A stretch of 64,000 nucleotides of DNA from Bigelowiella natans CCMP2755 (taxonomy: Eukaryota > Protista > Cercozoa), in the NCBI GenBank assembly GCA_000320545.1, contig ADNK01002609.1, forward strand, positions 1 to 64,000, read 5' to 3'. This document shows, piece by piece, positions 27,737 through 64,000 of the stretch; within the stretch, counting starts at the first letter, position 1; every line of letters begins with the position of its first letter. Below the pieces are notes generated by a model. It was not told the DNA's origin, made no database searches, and worked only from the letters and a program-made list of their open reading frames with translations. Position numbers and translations under genes: made by a program.

Positions 27737-29488
27737 TTAAGAGTCGTCGAGCTTAATGTCCAAGAACACATCCGAGTTCTTAGAAACACCGAGTACATCG
27801 TTCATGAAGGACGTGGAGTTGTGAATACAGCTGCCTCCTAGAATGATCTTCGGGCCTGAAGGCCCCGACGCTTTATTCATTTCTGAGACCAGAGCTGCCT
27901 CGGAGTATGTTGTCCCCCCGATAACGTACACGAACACCTTGTCCATGTTTCTCCCCTGGCCGACCGCATCCATGAAGGGATAATCATTCATTCCCAGCTT
28001 GTTCTTGAGCAAGCTGTCTAAGACGGATGAGAGCAGTGGCTTGTACCGGGTGTACACGTTTTCGATCTCGCTCAGGCCAGAGAAGGCGTTCTTCACCATG
28101 GAAAGGAACCCTCTGTTCCTGTAGAGGTCCCCCCCCCTTACCGAGGCGCCCGCGTACTTCACTATCTCATCGCTGAATCTAGCCATTCGCTTCTCCTCGA
28201 TGGTTTTGGCTTGCTCCTTTAGAACAGAGCGGACAGTTGACATCTCGTTCCTGTGCTTCTCATATCTCAAATGATAGAGAGACGCCATGCAGACCTTCCT
28301 CACGAATGTGACGCTGGAATCCCCCAGCAATCTCATGATCTCCGTGATAGCCTTCGAGTGATCATGGTCACACGCGAGATTTTGCTCAGCCTCTGATACG
28401 GCCATAAGCTTTTCCTCCTTCACTTTGCGGTTCATCTCCACCATCACAGCAACGTGCTTCGACACGTTGCCTTGGAATGTCTTCAGCTCTGGATATTGCT
28501 CCACGAATTTTTGCATATCCTGGATAGTCTCGATTTTTTGGTTCCCTTTTTTCGCTTTATATTGAGATACCAAGTCCTTGATCGCTTTGCCAAGGTCCCC
28601 GAAGTTGTAAGTGTACGTCTTGGCGAAGAATTCGTCCTGCGTAGTTGACATTACGACCTGCTTCATATCCGGCTTAATGTCTGGCACATTGCTCATATCA
28701 ACTCGGTTGCTGTCAATGGTCAGTAGCTCGTGGACCATCGCTTGATAAGTCCATTGCATAAGAAGAGGCGTGATGGGGTCCTCTCGTCGATCTAGGATAA
28801 GCAGCACCGGTTGATTTGAGTCTCGGAAATCAAACACTTCATTTTCTTCCTTCATCTTGCTCACAATTTCGATTGCCACGGCCTTACTCAGGGCTGATGC
28901 TTTCTGATAGCGCACAAGTGGCCTCTTTTTTTGGGATAAGAGCATTGATATGAGTCCTTCTACATTCCTTTCTAGAACAGCATTGTCAGCTTTCGTCCAG
29001 TTCGATCGTCTCGTATACAAAGACCGGGTTGAAGATAGATTGCAGTGCCATGACTCAGGAGTGACCGCAAAAAAATCAGCATAGTATTCTTGAACTTGCT
29101 TCACGAGCTCGTAATCATCTGCAGCAGCAATTGTCTTCAACTGTGCATCCCCGACAAAATTTGTGAAAAAGAGGTGATACTCTTTGAACTTGGGCTTTTG
29201 GAGAGCTTGCTGCAGAGCAGATAAGCTGGAAGAAGATGGTCGCAGGAGGCAAACAGCCTTAAGGTGGTTCATTGGAGTCTTGGAAGGTTTGGAAGGTGAG
29301 TCAATCTGCTCCACGATGAATACCTGCTTGGCGATGATCTCTGTCTGTGATATCACAAGGGAAACCATCTTCATGGTGTCCTTATCCACCAAGAGTGCCT
29401 TCATTCCACTCAACCCAACAATCTTCTCAACATAGCGCTTGAACGCATCAATGGCAGAGAAGGAGCTCTTGCCTTTGTGATCGCTCAT
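27737..29488 (-). CDS. VPS45: Sec1/Munc18-family vacuolar protein sorting protein 45, intronless
   Basis: 583 aa with GMKALLVD, HLKAVCLLRP, PKFKEYHLFFTN, VQEYYADF, LLILDRREDPITPLLMQWTYQAMVHELL, NVSKHV, GGTTYSEA and LGGSCIHNS. Confidence 0.95.
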   Translation of the reverse strand: MSDHKGKSSFSAIDAFKRYVEKIVGLSGMKALLVDKDTMKMVSLVISQTEIIAKQVFIVEQIDSPSKPSKTPMNHLKAVCLLRPSSSSLSALQQALQKPKFKEYHLFFTNFVGDAQLKTIAAADDYELVKQVQEYYADFFAVTPESWHCNLSSTRSLYTRRSNWTKADNAVLERNVEGLISMLLSQKKRPLVRYQKASALSKAVAIEIVSKMKEENEVFDFRDSNQPVLLILDRREDPITPLLMQWTYQAMVHELLTIDSNRVDMSNVPDIKPDMKQVVMSTTQDEFFAKTYTYNFGDLGKAIKDLVSQYKAKKGNQKIETIQDMQKFVEQYPELKTFQGNVSKHVAVMVEMNRKVKEEKLMAVSEAEQNLACDHDHSKAITEIMRLLGDSSVTFVRKVCMASLYHLRYEKHRNEMSTVRSVLKEQAKTIEEKRMARFSDEIVKYAGASVRGGDLYRNRGFLSMVKNAFSGLSEIENVYTRYKPLLSSVLDSLLKNKLGMNDYPFMDAVGQGRNMDKVFVYVIGGTTYSEAALVSEMNKASGPSGPKIILGGSCIHNSTSFMNDVLGVSKNSDVFLDIKLDDS

Positions 29489-29782
29489 TGCAGATGGTGA
29501 AGCGGAGCCCTCTTCGTTCTCTGTTGGCCTGTGTTTGGAAGTGAATACCGGGTAGTGACAGTGAGGAGTTCGTTGTCGTCATCACTTTTTCAATGGGCGT
29601 AGTGAAGTTGAAGAATGCCAAAGAATTTAGGCTTTCTGCATTGCTTTGTTCGAAACAACTGCGCAAAATCCTGGAAATGTCATGAGCAAGCTCGCGCTTG
29701 ATGTACTGTGGATGATCGAAGCTTGACAGCACTTGACTGGGTGTTTTTACCTTGAATGCGCCAGAGAGACTTTGTTCATTGT

Positions 29783-53373: not shown

Positions 53374-54398
53374 CTACCCTTCAAGCTCGTCGAAAACAGA
53401 GCGAATGTGCTTCATATCCTGCGCCGCGAATTTTATGTCAGAGATCTTGCAAATTAATCTCACCCGTCGTTTCGACATCAGCTTCGCTCTGGTGACGGAA
53501 ACAAGGCCGTTCTCTGACAGTCCTGTGATCAGGTCAATGAACTGGGGATGTGAGGGATTGCATGATTTTAAGGTTGGCAGGCGGCTCGCGATGCGGCCGT
53601 TGGAGAACCCCTTGAACCACTTGGTGAATCGCGCGATGGTCACGTCTTTGCTTTTGTATATTTGGTGGTAAAATGCGAAAAGAGTGAGGAGCATCTTCTC
53701 CTGGATCGGAAGGGCTTTGATGCGAGAGACGTACTCCGACCCCATCGAGCCGCTCAGCACGCGAGCCATGATGGATATGGTCACTTTTCCGCCATCACTA
53801 TTTTCGTCTTGTTCTTCAGCGATCACTTGGTCGAGGCATTGCCTGATGTGAAGGAGGCAGTATATACACGACTACTCAGCCATGCGAAAATGGGGGCGGG
53901 GGAGGGGGGCGACCAAGAACGAAAAGGGGTTGGCTTGTCATGCTTTCTCTCGCTTACTTACCGGCAGATATCCATGCACTTTCGCACATCGCCTGAAACA
54001 GCAGAAACCTAGTCGAAAAGGGAGAGGAGTAGGGGCAAACTATCAGTGGAAAATTCTTCAAAGCCTGCCATGCCTCTACGAGAAACTGAAGTAAGAGAAT
54101 TAGACCTTTCGAGCGCAGAATTGTAGGGCTCTGTCGTCAAAGAAGCTCTCCTCCTCCTCATCCTTTTCGTCATCTTCATCGTCATCACTGTCATCATCTT
54201 CTGCTTTCTTATTTGTTGTAGCAGCTATGCGCCGAGGAAGAACGGATTCAAAGCGAGCTCGAACGATATCAGAGAGTTCGGTGTGTGTGTAGGGCCTAAA
54301 CACGAGCAGCTTTGGCTCGCAGGAGCGCGCGCGCAAACGTGGGAGGAACCGGTCGGTCAAGTCGATGTTATTCGATATTCCTGAAAGTGCATAACACA

Positions 54399-54438
<40 letters not shown>

Positions 54439-55796
54439 GGGGAGAAGAGGGGATAAGTGCACAAGAAATTCACCTCTTGATCTTGATGTCGGTTAATTTT
54501 CGCGACGTCTTTCATTAAATCAATCATTACCAATGAGAACGACACTGGAACCGTACTTCTTAGGCCAGTCAAACAATTGATAGAGAACCGTCTGACGACG
54601 AGGAACGATAAATGATGAGAGAAGAATATAACGAATTTCAATGTCCCTTCCACAAAATTCAGTGTGCAGTGTCGAGTAATTATGCATCACACAGGCGAAT
54701 GTATTCACATCAGGTTGAGGATAATTGCATATGGTCTCACCTGCGATCGTGTCAGTAGCGCATCGATCTCATCTATCACACAGACTCTGCGAACATTGAT
54801 AAAATAAGTATTCGTTATGTTTAGCCGCAAGAGGATGAAGAATTCTGAATTAAGATGTACGTGAAGCGCTTATGGTTTTCGAGGAATTCGGTACGCAGCT
54901 CCCTGGCAGCTTCTATCGCATTTGAGCATCGTATCGAAGGTTGGATTTCCCTCAAAATTTCGCTGTAGATTTCTTGAGGTCTGGCGAGTGTCATTGCATT
55001 TATCTCCACAAGATTCACATTGAGGGATGAGTTGGCGGCAAGCACTTCACGACATACTTTGCCTACACAAAGCGATTTCCCTGTTCCAGGGCTGCCGCAG
55101 ATGTATAAGCTATCCCCATGCTTGTTCTCGAGAGAAGCGGCTGAGATTTATGTGCATATTTACACAACGGGAAGTTGTCTATCTACATATTCTGGTGCAG
55201 AATCTATGCTACTGTTACTTCAGCATGACATCTTTCCCCCCTTAAATTCACTAGTTATTTCAATCGTGAGTTTTTGTTTCAGTCATTTATGTGTCAGTAT
55301 AAATACATAGATAATTAGATAATTGCAAATACAGAAGAATGACACAATACAATCTGCTCCTTGTTACTAAGGCTGGCAATAAGGGGCACCTAAGAAGTTG
55401 CGAATCTGAGACTGTTCACTATTCCTACAGCAAACAGATTCTGGAGGTGTGCTTGTCCGAAGGACTTCCCTGAGCTTGGACACCACATCTCGGAGCTTTC
55501 CCTCTTCATTCTCTTTGTTGTTCTCCTGGTCACTTGCAACTAGATTTTGTGGTTTGAGCTCCACCTTTCTGTCCGAAGGGTAGTGCACCTTCTTCACTTT
55601 CTTCGAGAGAGTGGTGGGGGCAGTTTTCGTTGCCTTCGCGCAAGTTGAGGTATCTCGTCGGCCTAAGAAAACCAGCGTCATCATCTCATGTAACACATCC
55701 AAATGTAGATCGATACAAATCCTCCATACGTTTCTCTTTTCTCCAAACGTTCATTCTGGTCTGCCTAGGGCGCCCAGCAGTCCGTCTCGTTGGCAT
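53374..55796 (-). CDS. CDC6: Replication licensing AAA+ ATPase CDC6
   Basis: ATG 55796 (MPTRRTAGRPRQ); Walker A LYICGSPGTGKS; Walker B VIDEIDAL; GISNNIDLTDRFLPRL...LLVFRPYT; SGDVRKCMDICR; winged-helix C-terminus (LPIQEKMLL). Confidence 0.92.
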
Positions 55797-55850
55797 GGAG
55801 GCGAATATGTCGACTGATTCGCTTTCTGTAGATCTAGTCCTTCAGTCGCG

Positions 55851-56170: not shown

Positions 56171-58845
56171 ATGGGATTGACCACCAGCAGCTCTCCTTGC
56201 CAAAGGTGGTGTTTGAGCACGCTGGAGCACGAAGCAGCAAAGGCTAACCATCATCACAATGGCTGCCGACCAATGAAGATTTGCCAGATTGAGTTGAACG
56301 AATTTTGCTCCACGTTGAACACGGTAGGACAGAGAAATGTGAGAGAGAGTAAGTGCAATCAGCCCGGAGATTTGCTCATCAAGCGAGTACGCGGATTCTT
56401 TGCGGCGAACCCCAAATTCGATGCTCTAGCTCTTAAGGTTGAGAGTGTTATTTCGAAATTCCATAAATGTTTACGATTTCAATAATTAATTGTTTTTATG
56501 GCAAGAGGAGAGAAGCACGTTATAGCTGCATGTCAATAAGCATGGCGATCAGAAAGAAGCATTTTTAGATGCATGACGATACTCAGAACAACCTCATTCT
56601 TTCGTTGACATGATTTGCTCTTCAGTTTCCTAGCCCCAAGATTTTTAAAGCCAAAACTAGTGTCACACTCGGCGAGCTTCGCACGAAAACTTCGCAACTT
56701 TTCGAGAAGAAGGGAAATATCCGTGTTATCCTGCGAGAGGCGTCACGCGAGGTTGTGTTCCTAACTGAGCCAGCCAATGGCAACCAATTATCATCGGGCG
56801 AATGTAAAGAGACAGCGACATCTTCAACAATGGATCTATTTCTACGCCCTACTCCGAGGTACTCTTTGGACCCAGGCCTTTTGGTGCTCAACGACACGGT
56901 AATCTCCGTCAAAACTTCGGAGATTTTGGATCATCAGGGTAGCATGAGCAAGCTCTCGATGTTCTGCCAGAAGAAGAGATTAGCGCCCCCTCATTACAGT
57001 GTGCGGCAGTTTCTGAAGCCAAATTGGCTAAGCCCTGAGGCTGTGGCTACCTTCGTGGCAGAGGTGGAGATTAATGATCCTCGTCCCAAGATGAAACCAA
57101 CAACCCTTCGTCGCTTCGAGGGCTACAATTCTGTCAGCAAGAAGGCAGCCAAGGCCTCCGCTGCGCTCCAGGCCTGCATTTGGTTGTTTGAGATAAAGTT
57201 TCTAGATCCGAACTTGGACGTCGTGATGGATACTGGGAACCTTCTCCCGGCTATGGAGATTTCGTACCAACGCTCGCACAAAATTAGCAATCTGTACAGA
57301 TTCATAGCGCAATTTGCCACGCCTAATCCTGCAGGCAAACAACAGCCTCTTGTGGCCATCTCACACAACGACATTTCTGGAAGAGTGCAGCCGCTTGCTA
57401 TACCAAACGAGCGCCTCGATGATTTCTACAGACTCATTGCTGACTCGTGGCACGAACCACTGTTCTTCAGCGAGGAGGCCGCGCACAGCACATACATTCT
57501 ATTCTTCGACATTGACCTTAAACTCAAGAAGAAACCTCCCCCTTCTCCCAGCTCTCCACCCGGTCCCAAATGGAAGGGGGGGCACACAACACGGGTGATG
57601 ATGGCGGTGATTAACGCGGTAAGCTCCGTGTACCACCCTCGTCTGGCAGCTCTTCGAGCACTCGAGTATATTTTCCACCGTAGAATCTCCCAACTCCGCA
57701 GCGGGGCGTTGGACCTCTCGTCGGCCGCCAGCTCGTGTGCTAGCCTGGTGCTCTCTTACGCCGATAACTTGGAGGATGAGAGCAAGGACAGTGTAGCCAA
57801 CCTGATGCTAGTGGTCTCGGAGTCGAAGATCGATTGGCTTCGATCTTACGGTAAAAAGGGCCTTCACATGCACTTCCCGCGCCTCTTCGTCGATAGCCGC
57901 ACACACGAAATACTCTACCGCCTGATCCTCATTGAGCTCAAAGCATGCTGCCCCGCTCCTGGTCTCTACGTTCATTGCGATTACACAGCGGCGCCGTATA
58001 ACAAGCGTGCTACCACGGCTGGGTCATGGCCGACCGGAAAGATGCAACCCCCTTCCCCGCCATCTCCGGGTTTTGAATTCTACAGCCTACAGGAGGGATG
58101 GGGAGGGGACCACGACCGACTTGCTGGAGAGAGGGGAGAGCAAGAGGGCGCGCTGGACGCCGCGTGTGTGCTGGACCCACGCATTCGGATGATAGGGATG
58201 CGGAAGGCAGAGAAGTGTCGTTGTCCCGAGCGACTTCGCGCAGAGCGTCAATGCCGGAAGAGAAATCATAAGATCGACGTGGGTCGCCGCTATACCGTCA
58301 CGGCGATATATGTGGCAATGACGACGATGGAGCTGATAGAGGAGGAAGAGAAAAGATGGATGAGGAAGAGGGGGGGCAGGGGCAGGAGCAGCGGGAAGGC
58401 TGACAGTGTCAAGAAGAGACGGAAGAAGATCGCTGCTAGGGTCGCTCTCGCTATTCCTTCGTTCCGGTATGGATGGAGGCTGTGGCGCAAAGATGCTCAG
58501 GAGATGCAACGGTGCGTCACTGTTTATGTATGACTCTGCTCTCCAAATGCACTTACTTCTTGCCCTCCGCTCCCACCACCACCACCACCACCACCACATT
58601 CAATACTTCTTATATCAAGCAACACGAGATTCCTTCGCTACGCCATCAGGTTCTCCATTGTAGACCAGCAGGAGAACACAGTGTCTTTCGAGCAGGCCCG
58701 TCACATACGAGAGACACGTGTAGAGCTACTCCACCTTCTCTCGCTCCGGAAATCCGCCCCCAGTAAGTAAGTAAGTAAGTAAGGACGGAAGGAAGGCGAC
58801 AAAATGAATGAAGGAGGAGAAGGGGTTTGGAAATACAGATGGCAA

Positions 58846-58879
<34 letters not shown>

Positions 58880-59107
58880 CTGTATTATGTGGCCAATGCT
58901 ATCACGTCTCTCTGTTTCGCAACATTAGGAACCCAAGCTTGGATTCCAGAGTTCCACGAAGATGACGAAAACAATGACGGTGGTGGTAGCAGTACCTGTG
59001 ACGACATCGACGACGATTACACAAACACCAGCAGGGAAAAGAGCAACGTGAAAGTAAGGGGAGCTGCTCATTCTACCGTTGCGGGCGTTGAGGATTATGG
59101 AGTTAGA

Positions 59108-59142
<35 letters not shown>

Positions 59143-60168
59143 CGATTACAAAGGTGATGATGCCGATTTGCAAAGGAAAATAGTGGAGGAACATAGGGCT
59201 CATTGTGACAATGATAACATTGAGGAAGAAGGGAGGGAGGGGAAGGGGGGCGAGAAGAGGCGAAATGATGATAGGGCGATAGCGCATAGTAGTCACGCTA
59301 TTGAGGAGGCACTCGCAGCTCTAGACGGAATCGAGAAATGCACGGATTTGATGTCGGCCCCCATGATCATGACGAATGAGGAACAGAACAATAGCGGGAT
59401 TGCTTCTGGGAGTACGACTGAGCGCAAATCTATCAAGATGCGCGGCAAACAGACTGAAAAAGTATCATCAGCTAAGGTGAGGCCATTACAACGCGAATCA
59501 TCATCAACGTTAGGAGATTTCCTTGAATCCCTCAAAAGACGCTGGAACGCAAAGGATGTTGTGAAGGGGAGGAGCAAGGAAGAGGAGGAGAATCAGGAGG
59601 AGGGAGGTGATGATGACATTGATAGGGAAGATGGATATCAGACTATTGCTGGCAACATCGACGAGAAGAAGGCGAATGTGCTGAACGAGGGAAAGTGCGT
59701 ACTACGGAAGCTTTCAGAGCGCGAATATGTGCTCTTAGTTCTGCGGGGAAAGACAACGGGATGTAGTAGGGGCGATGATGTTGTTAAGGCAAAAAATGGA
59801 TTTAATGGCAGTGATGAAAAGCATCAAGATATGATCGGCAATAATGGTAGTTTAGTGGATGATGTTGAGTGAACGACATTTCTCACCCTCACTCTCTCTC
59901 TATCTCTTTCTCTTACTTATCATTCACTTCGCTCAGTATTTGTTATACACATGCAAACGTTGAAATCACCAGTAGATTGGTTCTTTCCGCGTGCTGTAGC
60001 GTTTATTATCATTGTCATCACCATCATCACCCTTTGAAGGCGGCAAAATGGGAGAGGCGGAGAAGGGGCACTACTCCGACAAGATCGATGGGAGGCTATA
60101 TCTGGCTACTCTAACGATGAATCAAGCGGCTAAAAGAATCAATGAATGGATGACCTCCGTATTATTAC

Positions 60169-60205
<37 letters not shown>

Positions 60206-60737
60206 GTATACATGTATACATTATTCTATGTGCACGTGTCCCCGAAGGAGGGCCTCGTGCTTTTCTCACCCCCCCTCCCCTTCCCTCTGCATACTGCTAT
60301 CATTACTACAGGTGGAGAGCTTCAAGTATGTTGAATTCGAGAAGGCTGGAGCGCTGCAAAATACTTCTCCCCTGATTTCTGACATTGCAGCAGAGACCAA
60401 GTTCAGATATAAGGTGCTATTATGTGCAATCTGCACTCCGCTCAACCCCCCTCACCACCTCTCCTTTCCCTTCACCCTCATTTTCCTTTTTTCGCTTCGT
60501 TCATTTCCAGCAGTAATCAACAATGCATTCATCATCGAATCATCGTTGTCGTGAAAACGACAAATTAACTGTTTTTGGATAGGCGCGTGTGCCGTGGGTG
60601 GAAGCTGGTATTGAGGACATTCTCACAGGCCTTCCGATGCCGAATGACAGGGTATTTGTTAGTTATCCAGTAATACGTTCATGTTTACTAAAAATAATGA
60701 ATATCAAAAGTATGTGTACATATGTAGATATGAATAT

Positions 60738-60815
<78 letters not shown>

Positions 60816-63800
60816 TTTTGTGTGTTGATGTGGTGTTGCTTACTCGATGTAGCTTGCTCGGAGGGTTTGCTTTATGCAGGTCATACAGCATCTCCACAGA
60901 CAGGTTACTACAAAAGAAGGAAGGAAAGGAGGGAAAGGAGGAATTAGAGGAGGAGGAAGAGAGGCATAGAAACAGAGAGACACAGGGAAAGAAACATTTT
61001 AACCCAGTAGCACAGTTTTCTTCTTTATCTCCCTCTTCTTCTTCTTCCTTTCCTGTCGCTATTTTCGTCGATCATAGGGCCGAATTGATGATGAGCTTTT
61101 CCCTATTGGATGGAAGGAGAGGCAGCTACAGCAGCAGCAGCAGCAAGAGGAAACAGAGAGCAAAGAAGACGATGCTGATGATTACAGTGAAACCTTTGCA
61201 TCCCCATGCCGCAACAGTAACACGGCAAACGAGAAAAAGAAGAAGAAGAATTACAACAAAAGAAGCTCTAAGACCACCGCAAGCACCCTTGCATCGCATC
61301 TCAAAACAACATCTGTGCGTCGGCACCTTCCGTCAGCGTTTATTCCTGAGAAGGGGAGGGGGTGCGAGGACGAGGGAGAGAAGAAGGAGAACGAATGGGA
61401 AGAGGGGAAGAAGAAGTTGGGAGAATCGAAAGAAGCGATAAAGACGAAACCACAACAGCTGCAGCTGCTCTCCGAAAAGGCCTTCGTCGCGTATAGAATT
61501 GATCTTGGGGAGAAGATGTTTGGATGGTGCGTTATCTTGCCCAGGCATGCAGAGAACATCCTTGGCCGTCAGATGTGTGTTCCACTGCCTCATCGAGACC
61601 ATGACTTAAAGAATGTGACAACGACAACGACGACCACGACGACGCCACAGCAGCAGCGCCCGCAGCAAAACAATGAAAACTGCATTAATAGCAGTATGCC
61701 AGAGTGCGTATGGCTTCGGAGGCTTGGGGGGGATAGCAGCCAGAAGCATTTGTTTCCTCCATCATCGTCGTTGTCGCTGCCGTCGTCTATGTTCTCCTCG
61801 GGAGAAAACGGAGGAGGGGGGGGAGAAGGGGGAGGAAGAGGAGTAAGTCTGATGAAACTTGCGCGTCATTTCCACCAGATGATCTTTACCATGTTACTAG
61901 CAAAGGAGGGGCGCATTACGGCCCTCCACCAACTCCTCGTTCAAATCTCACAAGACAATCAACGAACCGGAAGCAGCAGTCCCAGAGGACTCTATCTTAT
62001 TGCCCCTCTCCACAGAGTGAGGAGAACAACAACAGGCAGTTGCGACAATAGCAGTAGCAACGGTAAGTGGGAAGTAGACTGGGAGACAATGCAGCATTTG
62101 GTTTGCCTTGTCAGGAATCCAGAGCAGTATCGTTACGCTAGCAGTAGTGGTAGTCGTACCAGCAGTGTTAATGCAGCGCGGGGCGACGGTAGCAGCAACA
62201 AAATGGCAAAGCACAACCGTTCCTGTCTTCATCTGCCTAAACGATGGCTTCTCAATCAAGGAGAAGAAGAAGAAGAAGAACACGGAAAAGAAGAAGAGAA
62301 TCCGTTAATAAGAGGAGGAGGAGATGGTAAGCACCGCGATAAAGCCAGAGGAAATGGTAGAGGGGGGAAGAGAGAAAAACGACAAAGGGGGGCGGGGAGA
62401 ATCCTGATCCGAGAGATGTGCGTTATCAGCCTCTATAACCTGCTAGTCTACAAGCCGCTCGGAGCAGAATCCGACGTGACGATGGACGACCTCTTCCCCG
62501 ATGGTAGTGGGAGGACATACAAGCGACACTTCCAGCTGCAGATGGGGAGGGTTCTCAAGGCAAAAGACCAGCTCCTCCTCAGGGTGCAGAACGACTTCTG
62601 GCGCATCAGCAACTCGATTCATACTGCTGCTGGCCAAAACACCACCACCAAGACAAGAGGAGTAGGGTTCCCTATGACAGCTGCGGCTAACGCTGCTGCT
62701 GCTACTACCACTACCAGTAGCAATGATGACAACTCCTATGCCCTGATTCCTCAAGAGCTCACTTGGTGGTTCGGAGTAAACCTATCCTCGTTGGCGCGTC
62801 TTCCCTACTTTCTTTCCGAATGGCAAGCGTGCCTCTCCCTCCACGACCTCGCGAAAAGCATTGCCTACCCCCTACCATGTTTCTCCCCGTCCCCCGCTGC
62901 TGCTGCTGCCACGGTTCCAGCGGTCATGTTCGGGGAGGGAAAGCGACGGTTCAGGCTGTTGCGTGCTTCCTTAACCAGCCCAAACGCACAACCGGGATTT
63001 GCACGGAACTGGGAGCAGCTCGAGTTCCTCGGTGATGCGGTGCTGGAGATGCTGATCGTCGAAAGCCTTTTCTACCTCTACCCTGATGACGAGGTCCGCC
63101 TCACACGTGACTCGCAGGCCGTTCTCCGCAATGCGAACCTCCGCGATTTGTACGTGAATGCTCGTCTCCCGCAGTACGCACACATCGATCCGTACGTGCA
63201 GGACCATTGGTATCCTCTCTGTGGCTTTTCGCGTCCCGTCGCTCACTTTACTCACAACTCTGCCGCCGCGGGTGATAACAGGTTCAAACGACTACGTGCT
63301 GTTAGCGGGGGGGGCAGCAGGAGCAAAGTCAAAGGAGCCGAAAATGCCGGTAGTAGCGGCCTGGGCAACGACCTGAACAAGATTACGCTGCAGCTTAAGC
63401 AGATGAGCGACTCCGCGGAGGCATTGGTTGGTGCTTTCTATGCACTCGCATGCGACGTAAATCCGCGCGAGGGGCTAGAGAGCGCACGGCCCTTCGTGAC
63501 CGACGTGCTCGGTGTGCGACTTCCTTCAAAGCGCGAGAGAGATGCTCGCTTTGAGCAATACATGCAGCGGATTCGCAGCCTGCGACTGGGAGGACATGGA
63601 GGGCAGATGGCCATGTTGGCGAGAGCAGAAGCATCTGTCTCCCGCTTTTACAAAGTCACAGGCTATCGCTTTCTCAACTCAAACCTCCTTATATCGGCTC
63701 TCACATCCAAGGCCGTCGATGCGCGTAACAACTATGAGGCGTTGGAGAAGCTGGGCGACGCGATCATCAAGACGATGGTGTCCACCCGGTTGTACGAGCG

Positions 63801-64000
63801 TGCGGATACATTCTGCATGACGCCGCACCACCTGCACAAGCTCAGGCTTCAGTTTGTGCACAACAACTTGTTCGGGTGAGAGCACATATGAACCGAATGC
63901 ACACTAGTAAAGTGTCATATTATATGCTAAAAAAGGAGCGATGCTATTACTTATTTGCGTGCATCATATGTCTGCAGGTACGTCTTCTACTCGTCAGGGT
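56171..64000 (+). CDS. Helicase-less Dicer-like protein fused to an AEP primase-polymerase domain (DUF283 - AEP - acidic linker - DUF283 - PAZ - RNase IIIa - RNase IIIb), truncated by the window edge
   Basis: Phase-consistent GT-AG exons 56171-56437, 56626-58511, 58650-58762, 58929-59846, 60040-60158, 60312-60413, 60583-60651, 60853-60903 and 61078-~63875. Motifs: SKKAAKASAALQACIWLFEIKFLDPNL; LFFDIDLK, KGLHMHFP, LDAACVLDPRIRMIGMRK; QHLHRQGRIDDELFP; TYKRHF...DQLLLRV...LIPQEL; WEQLEFLGDAVL...SDSAEALVGA; NYEALEKLGDAII. Confidence 0.85.

Follow-up and report, generated by a model that had tools for sequence, protein, structure and literature searches.

The Dicer Gene

The window, that is, the whole stretch of 64,000 nucleotides of Bigelowiella natans DNA that we analysed, is eukaryotic: its introns are small and of the GT..AG type, and the neighbouring genes include those for Cdc6 and a dynein light chain. 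Near its end, on the plus strand, lies a spliced gene for a Dicer protein (Table 1). Ten exons joined from the ATG at 56273 make one open frame of at least 2081 amino acids, which contains no stop and continues past the end of the window. The nine introns between 56438 and 63977 all have GT..AG ends and were placed by contigs of three runs. These contigs skip the introns, and that the runs are RNA is a guess. Raw reads of run X22 (19 reads from 6% of the run) were left out of the gene model. The contigs cover the gene piecewise, none of them end to end, and the gap at 59097–59253 is a repeat inside an open exon. No contig depth was seen directly upstream of the gene, between 55900 and 56170.

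The encoded protein consists, in order, of 155 residues of no known kind, a dsRNA-binding domain (dsRBD), an AEP primase-polymerase domain, an acidic linker, a PAZ-like region, and the RNase IIIa and RNase IIIb domains. An earlier, sequence-only reading of this DNA had placed the AEP inside a host antiviral enzyme; the spliced frame carries both the AEP and two RNase III domains, and the enzyme is a Dicer. That reading had also assigned nearly all of the AEP to one 1.9 kb exon. This is exon 2 (56626–58511, 1886 nt), but the closing ELLHLLSLR lies in exon 3, past a 138-nt intron. Once intron 3 has been spliced, exon 4 (918 nt) stays open to the next spliced junction.

Several other features were observed at the locus. 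The first 155 residues of Dicer (56273–56930, plus strand) have no Pfam match. One contig of run X6 (58649–58837) reads into intron 3, where a stop at 58768 would give a dsRBD-AEP protein without RNase III; this contig may represent an unspliced precursor. A Cdc6-like gene on the minus strand (53374–55800), with AAA and winged-helix pieces recognized by Pfam, is placed head to head with the Dicer gene, with the starts ≈400–500 bases apart. Further away, in an otherwise intron-rich region, is a single-exon frame of 613 amino acids (27737–29578, minus strand), which we take to resemble Vps45/Sec1.

Table 1. Features of the Dicer gene, with positions in the window.
Feature	Position	Strand	Evidence
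Exon 1, coding, 55 amino acids, no known family	56273..56437	+	ATG 56273; contigs start ~56210; joint 56435>56624 in 3 of 4 runs; no Pfam match
Exon 2, 1886 nt, dsRNA-binding domain and most of the AEP	56626..58511	+	Contigs and frame
dsRNA-binding-fold domain (Dicer_dimer/dsrm-like), directly before the AEP	56941..57216	+	Pfam PF03368, E 3.3e-7, 30.7 bits against a cut-off of 23.7
AEP primase-polymerase domain, spliced residues ~274-730, crosses introns 2 and 3	57280..58951	+	Pfam PF23162; match to profile positions 16-330 (of 478); closest fold ASFV C962R (Z 15.4)
AEP motif positions, one frame	ISHNDISGRV 57358, IPNERLDDFYRLIA 57400, LFFSEE 57460, LFFDID 57499, KGLHMHFPRLFVD 57856, RMIGMRK 58186, DVGRRY 58276, ELLHLLSLR 58723	+	
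AEP motif I, FFDID, two metal-binding Asp	57502..57516	+	Invariant 15/15
AEP motif II, KGLHM (K-x-G-x-H)	57856..57870	+	K, G and H invariant 15/15
AEP motif III Asp and following Arg and Lys	58150..58206	+	D293, R303 and K309 of the aligned piece invariant 15/15
Internal Cys insert, C-x-C-x9-C-x4-H, predicted zinc site	58216..58269	+	Two outer Cys invariant 15/15
Intron 2, 138 nt, GT..AG; takes out the stop at 58531	58512..58649	+	Joint in 3 of 4 runs
Exon 3, AEP closing helix (ELLHLLSLR)	58650..58762	+	Contigs, frame, profile match
Intron 3, 166 nt, GT..AG; between the AEP and the Dicer body	58763..58928	+	Joint in X1, X2 and X16; read into by one X6 contig
Exon 4, acidic linker of low complexity, in a single open frame	58929..59846	+	Contigs and frame
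Probable canonical DUF283, in exons 5-8 and the first part of exon 9	60096..61104	+	Joints in contigs; resemblance to DUF283
PAZ-like stretch	62407..62592	+	Aligns weakly and collinearly with residues 891-955 of Arabidopsis DCL3; not significant by itself
RNase IIIa, E..LGD and D..E acids	63013..63441	+	Pfam PF00636, E 5.8e-17; best PDB matches DCL3, DCL1 and Dicer
RNase IIIb start, E..LGD; runs beyond the window	63736..64000	+	Pfam E 1.7e-5; joint in 3 of 4 runs
RNase IIIb intron	63876-63977	+	Joint in 3 of 4 runs

Domain Architecture

Both RNase III domains have their catalytic acids, the end of RNase IIIb lying beyond the window. Comparison of the RNase III part with that of a related strain, whose contigs cover no AEP, gave seven synonymous and two non-synonymous differences; one of 29 differences, at a repeat, had been removed before the count. 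The PAZ-like stretch had no Pfam match in the pieces scanned. Exons 5–8 and the start of exon 9 presumably encode the DUF283 domain; the separate exon pieces of exons 5–9 had no Pfam or PDB match and no self-similarity to the first dsRBD.

The B. natans protein resembles canonical Dicers and Dicer-like proteins (Arabidopsis DCL3, 7vg2, and DCL1, 7eld; human Dicer, 5zak) in having a PAZ-like region and a pair of RNase III domains, arranged in the usual way and with their acids intact. It differs from them in having no helicase motifs, and in that a dsRNA-binding domain and an AEP stand first. In the pieces of the gene that were scanned, there was no Walker A motif and no helicase Pfam match, and the only DEKH, in the linker, is a chance occurrence. 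Since there was also no contig depth just upstream of the gene, the AEP stands at the usual helicase position of Dicer. This is a new Dicer architecture, in which a dsRBD and an AEP are found in place of the helicase. Helicase-less Dicers are known, for example in Giardia, but none carrying a polymerase was found in the literature searched. Full-text searches likewise found no Dicer-AEP fusion, although reviews of RNAi diversity outside those searches may mention such fusions; passages of PMC10245619, PMC10132985 and 10.1101/2024.01.18.576163 have no bearing on it.

Active Site and Fold of the AEP Domain

All the motifs quoted in the sequence-only reading, together with its Cys pattern, are in the plus-strand frame exactly where it had put them. 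The domain is real, but the extent proposed for it, 57330..58762, was wrong at both ends: it begins at ≈57280 and finishes at ≈58951. The Pfam family AEP_C962R matches directly behind the Dicer_dimer/dsRBD-fold domain with an E-value of 5.9e-7 (30.3 bits against a cut-off of 23), and the spliced Dicer scores 151 bits against a profile of 14 relatives that was built without Dicer itself. There was no match to PF01896 (DNA_primase_S) in the gene at E-values up to 1, searching the AEP sequence against the PDB gave nothing at a useful E-value, and NCBIfam gave nothing for the AEP.

The Dicer AEP and its 14 relatives were aligned in 15 rows, with identities of 21–29%. The motifs that define the AEP superfamily (I, DxD/E; II, sxH; III, hD), as given in part of PMC4538821, are all present and invariant in 15/15. 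The acids of motif I correspond to Asp97 and Asp99 in C962R (PMC10516667, in part). Judged by this alignment, the catalytic residues of the Dicer AEP are intact. It has gained long insertions compared to its kin, and the invariance of the D, D, K, G, H, D, R and K residues in 15/15 rows, despite the low identity and these insertions, suggests selection on the active site.

The Cys pattern, which had been read as a possible zinc ribbon, proved to be a feature of the family: it is an internal insert common to all the kin, with two Cys invariant in 15/15, and forms a predicted zinc site that is distinct from the UL52-type finger described below. By pattern, 4 of 68 IMG/VR primases have a CxxC-type variant at this position, and one of these four comes from a giant-virus bin that also contains NCLDV capsid genes. 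In four giant-virus-type primases (L042, L070, L080 and L037), a CxxC..CxxCxG insert, which we take to be DnaJ-finger-like, immediately follows the catalytic Lys, where Dicer has its Cys insert.

A predicted model of the AEP (pLDDT 64) has low-confidence long insertions around a core with a palm fold. The top ten VIA rows for this model were all AEPs, with Z-scores from 15.4 down to 6.4. The highest score was obtained with ASFV C962R (15.4), followed by HHV1 primase (11.7), human PrimPol (11.2), MPXV E5 (10.5) and D5 (10.2), while PriS scored 7.0–7.2. PriS, LigD and Prim-Pol all had Z-scores of 7.2 or less, and a model of one relative gave the same ordering. Because its predicted fold is closest to C962R, UL52, PrimPol and D5, we assign the Dicer AEP to the NCLDV-herpes AEP clade, which also contains PrimPol (PMC4538821, in part). 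In BFVD, a library of viral proteins only, all 33 named matches at E ≤ 0.001 come from large DNA viruses, and the best are proteins of Pandoravirus, medusavirus, Feldmannia virus and Clandestinovirus.

The Dicer AEP has in common with ASFV C962R and poxvirus D5/E5 the AEP fold (rmsd of 3.6 over 220 aligned residues for C962R), the DxD/H/D active site and the Pfam family AEP_C962R. It differs from the C962R/D5 helicase-primases in that the Dicer gene lacks PriCT2, D5_N and the SF3 helicase, and identity is 14%. Neither these domains nor a Walker A motif were found in the Dicer gene or in 16/16 nearest kin, whereas the IMG/VR D5 protein L091 has them; L091 itself gave 7.3 bits and has no Cys insert pattern. 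Human PrimPol has a related AEP of the same clade (rmsd 3.9, 209 aligned residues), and its layout of AEP plus finger is that of the kin. However, PrimPol has DxE and SxH motifs (PMC4027207, in part), where the Dicer AEP has DxD and GxH, along with an internal Cys insert and no finger. PriS, with a Z-score of ≈7, is far below C962R. The view that the domain is of giant-virus (NCLDV), D5/C962R-like type therefore holds as to clade, closeness of fold to C962R and distance from PriS, but a helicase-fused D5/C962R source is not supported, since the nearest kin are stand-alone primases with a UL52-type finger.

Nearest Relatives

A search of 1.84 billion representatives yielded 16 matches of 115–541 amino acids, none of which has RNase III or helicase domains. 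An orthologous Dicer-AEP fusion was found neither among these representatives nor, by a weak search, among 7995 longer candidates that were scored, and none was obtained from runs X17, X19, X21 and X16, which also yielded no differences in the AEP. The word-index searches performed poorly, recovering 0/7995 longer candidates, 1/7991 with alignment A1 and 6/6673 with P0004.

The nearest kin are 15 aligned environmental stand-alone primases, one of them added from the P0004 word-index search and nearly all from metagenome or run assemblies, consisting of an AEP and a C-terminal C-H-C-C zinc finger of the UL52 type. The first half of this finger (CxNxxxxH) is present in 11/15 kin. The finger is UL52-like according to the Atlas, in which the family is found on 19–20% of cluster members. 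A model of one of the kin best matches the AEPs of Pandoravirus, medusavirus and Feldmannia virus. On Dicer, the match to the kin profile ends at position 330 of 478, ahead of the finger, and no CxNxxxxH finger is present anywhere in the 2081 residues of the Dicer chain. In profile scores, too, the stand-alone environmental primases are nearest: the Dicer AEP scores 140.5 and 105.7 bits with profiles of the environmental kin, compared to 20.0 and 26.3 with those of IMG/VR giant-virus primases and 7.3 with one D5. The environmental rows had been picked by similarity to the query, a caveat on their scores and grouping.

The layout of the kin is also that of the stand-alone AEP and UL52-type finger primases of giant viruses, which we take to be A468R-like, and of mirusvirus OG0000037. 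The name A468R-like is that used in part of PMC4538821. The Dicer AEP differs from the giant-virus stand-alone primases in having no finger, in scoring only 20–26 bits against the IMG/VR profiles, and in falling outside their clade.

Five of 11 kin proteins (P0002, P0010, P0011, P0014 and P0016) end at the same column inside the finger, in V-S, V-R or V-L, and in three shorter ones (P0007, P0009 and P0015) the last residues are V-S or V-C, again at a column that the three have in common. Shared break-off columns of this type are what gene callers make at GT donors, and several of the kin thus look intron-bearing, as far as can be told from the proteins. They are possibly a family of such AEP primases belonging to nuclear viruses or protists.

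Phylogeny and Origin

The motif scan of IMG/VR gave 120 loci, 119 of which encode the broad primase family; the motif favours the stand-alone type, and there was one true D5 (L091). No further D5 AEPs were gained by searches for an outgroup. Phylogenetic analysis was carried out on 47 rows and 261 columns, consisting only of viral rows (31 of 68 after thinning), 15 environmental rows and Dicer. In this tree, 11 environmental sequences form the sister group of the Dicer AEP (support 98/90), which lies outside the clade of 30 IMG/VR primases (99/96). The end branch of the Dicer AEP is long, 1.52 changes per column, with the motifs intact. Grouping with three IMG/VR primases, two of which have the Cys insert, was rejected by the AU test (p = 9e-6). 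Dicer and L091, the single D5 row, are both long branches; they are separate in the free tree, and the AU test did not reject their grouping (p = 0.25).

The domain probably derives from an ancient capture of a stand-alone primase with an AEP and a zinc finger, and a D5-type helicase-primase is an unlikely donor. We lean towards a DNA virus that uses the nucleus as the source, with a protist gene as a strong but less favoured candidate. A viral donor is unproven, since IMG/VR yielded none of the kin, several of which look intron-bearing. No DNA context for the kin was found in IMG/VR, metagenomes or phages, and 35/35 candidate kin loci picked by pattern were false. Mirusviruses are intron-rich (10.64898/2026.08.29.747986, in part), and the break-off pattern of the kin therefore fits intron-rich nuclear viruses, or else a protist gene family. 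According to part of PMC12768974, a UL52-type primase is found in 401 mirusvirus genomes, and both copies listed there are intron-free.

We considered the possibility that the AEP is a recent, TpA-mutated viral insert, and rejected it. Recent hypermutated viral inserts have been described for B. natans (10.64898/2026.01.13.699255), and no mention of Dicer was found there. The TpA o/e ratio is 0.72 in the AEP exon, compared to 0.47–0.65 in host coding stretches; both GC3 and TpA are host-like, which argues against such an insert.

Possible Roles of the AEP Domain

For their duplex substrate, Dicers depend on helicases, partner proteins and separate RdRPs. Our main reading, to which we assign a probability of roughly 0.38, is that the AEP, by extending 3' ends, provides duplex RNA for the RNase III of its own chain. 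The AEP, with its complete catalytic residues, sits at the helicase position, where it would extend existing 3' ends, making or lengthening duplex RNA, which would then be cut into small RNAs by the portion of the protein that contains the PAZ-like region and the RNase III domains. Here we infer the catalytic activity, RNA as the product, and the hand-over to RNase III. Its mode of action would be comparable to that of an RdRP paired with Dicer, or of Neurospora QDE-1 as it supplies Dicer, except that everything is on one chain and the polymerase has an unrelated fold. QDE-1 produces dsRNA for RNAi, starting from either ssDNA or RNA (PMC2950127, in part). The proposed job of the polymerase, duplex RNA for Dicer, is the same in both systems, but the polymerase fold is unrelated, the Neurospora proteins are separate, and the activity of the Dicer AEP is predicted.

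In human PrimPol, the finger is needed for priming, but not for extension (PMC4027207, in part), and since the UL52-type finger is absent from Dicer, extension is likelier than de novo priming. The isolated AEP of C962R does extend primers, as reported in part of PMC10516667. PolpTN2, an archaeal plasmid AEP, gains terminal-transferase and reverse-transcriptase activity when its accessory region is removed (PMC4538821, in part), showing that the substrate choice of AEPs can shift. The host-like composition of the AEP region (TpA o/e 0.72) also counts in favour of RNA supply. In the available part of PMC10516667, however, C962R adds NTPs very poorly, prefers dNTPs and is without terminal transferase activity. 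The dNTP preference weakens the RNA-supply reading, and a DNA-making role is retained for that reason. A fuller scenario starts with a primase of a DNA virus that uses the nucleus; after capture, this primase would have lost the finger for priming, taken the place of the helicase and turned into a new kind of RNA polymerase, giving a self-feeding Dicer that makes its own dsRNA. Taken as a whole, this scenario is doubtful.

If supply of RNA by the AEP is correct, a polymerase of a DNA-replication family inside Dicer would represent a novel means of initiating or amplifying silencing, and a viral-type replication enzyme would have been turned to host defence, all in a single-chain enzyme that can be tested directly. 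Should this mechanism prove wrong, the architecture still has the support of spliced contigs, and it points to a family of apparently intron-bearing AEP primases of no assigned source.

An active AEP might instead make DNA, like C962R and PrimPol. It would extend 3' ends with either DNA or RNA as template, and serve to repair RNA-DNA hybrids or to copy invader RNA into DNA; the ends could be those of Dicer's small-RNA products, which would replace the priming finger. In addition to the dNTP preference of C962R, this would agree with the binding of single- and double-stranded DNA by the polymerase domain of PrimPol (PMC4027207, in part) and with the ability of a truncated AEP to reverse-transcribe. 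The Cdc6-like replication gene placed head to head with Dicer would also be in keeping with a DNA-making role, but this placement may be due to chance in a compact genome, and the dsRNA-binding domain alongside the AEP and the fusion to two RNase III domains point to RNA. RNA-DNA hybrids, moreover, are not usual substrates of Dicer, and we consider DNA synthesis unlikely, if still a contender. We give less weight again to the AEP as a binding module, sensor or decoy, which would hold nucleic-acid ends or viral replication intermediates and, taking over from the helicase, load them on the RNase III core, with no catalysis needed. Its location at the helicase position, the long low-confidence insertions around the core and the missing priming finger are all consistent with such a role. 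However, decoys usually lose their catalytic residues, whereas here the metal- and nucleotide-binding residues have all been kept at ≈25% identity, and the intact active site weakens the decoy reading.

Two more explanations appear very improbable. The AEP could act in 3' tailing or end repair, with a few nucleotides added either to substrates or to the small-RNA products, as might be expected from the enhanced terminal transferase activity of PolpTN2 upon loss of its accessory domain, but no terminal transferase activity is found in C962R or in its AEP alone. Least probable of all, the fusion could be young or loose and have no joint function, or there could be two transcripts, one for a dsRBD-AEP protein and one for a helicase-less Dicer. 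No orthologue was found, no contig spans the gene, and the X6 contig that reads into intron 3 would stop after the AEP. On the other hand, intron 3 is spliced in X1, X2 and X16 into an open exon of 918 nt, and the host-like composition and the long end branch with intact motifs do not suggest a young fusion. Compared to all of these, supply of duplex RNA by the AEP is the reading that we prefer.

Other Viral Primase Loci

Two further loci were observed among the viral sequences. L073 (3148–6048, minus strand) contains a frame of 967 amino acids with an AEP and finger in the last 420 residues and an N-terminal half without Pfam match; there is an NCLDV capsid gene on the same contig. The D5 helicase-primase of L091 (3464–7432, plus strand) contains an intein that carries a homing endonuclease.
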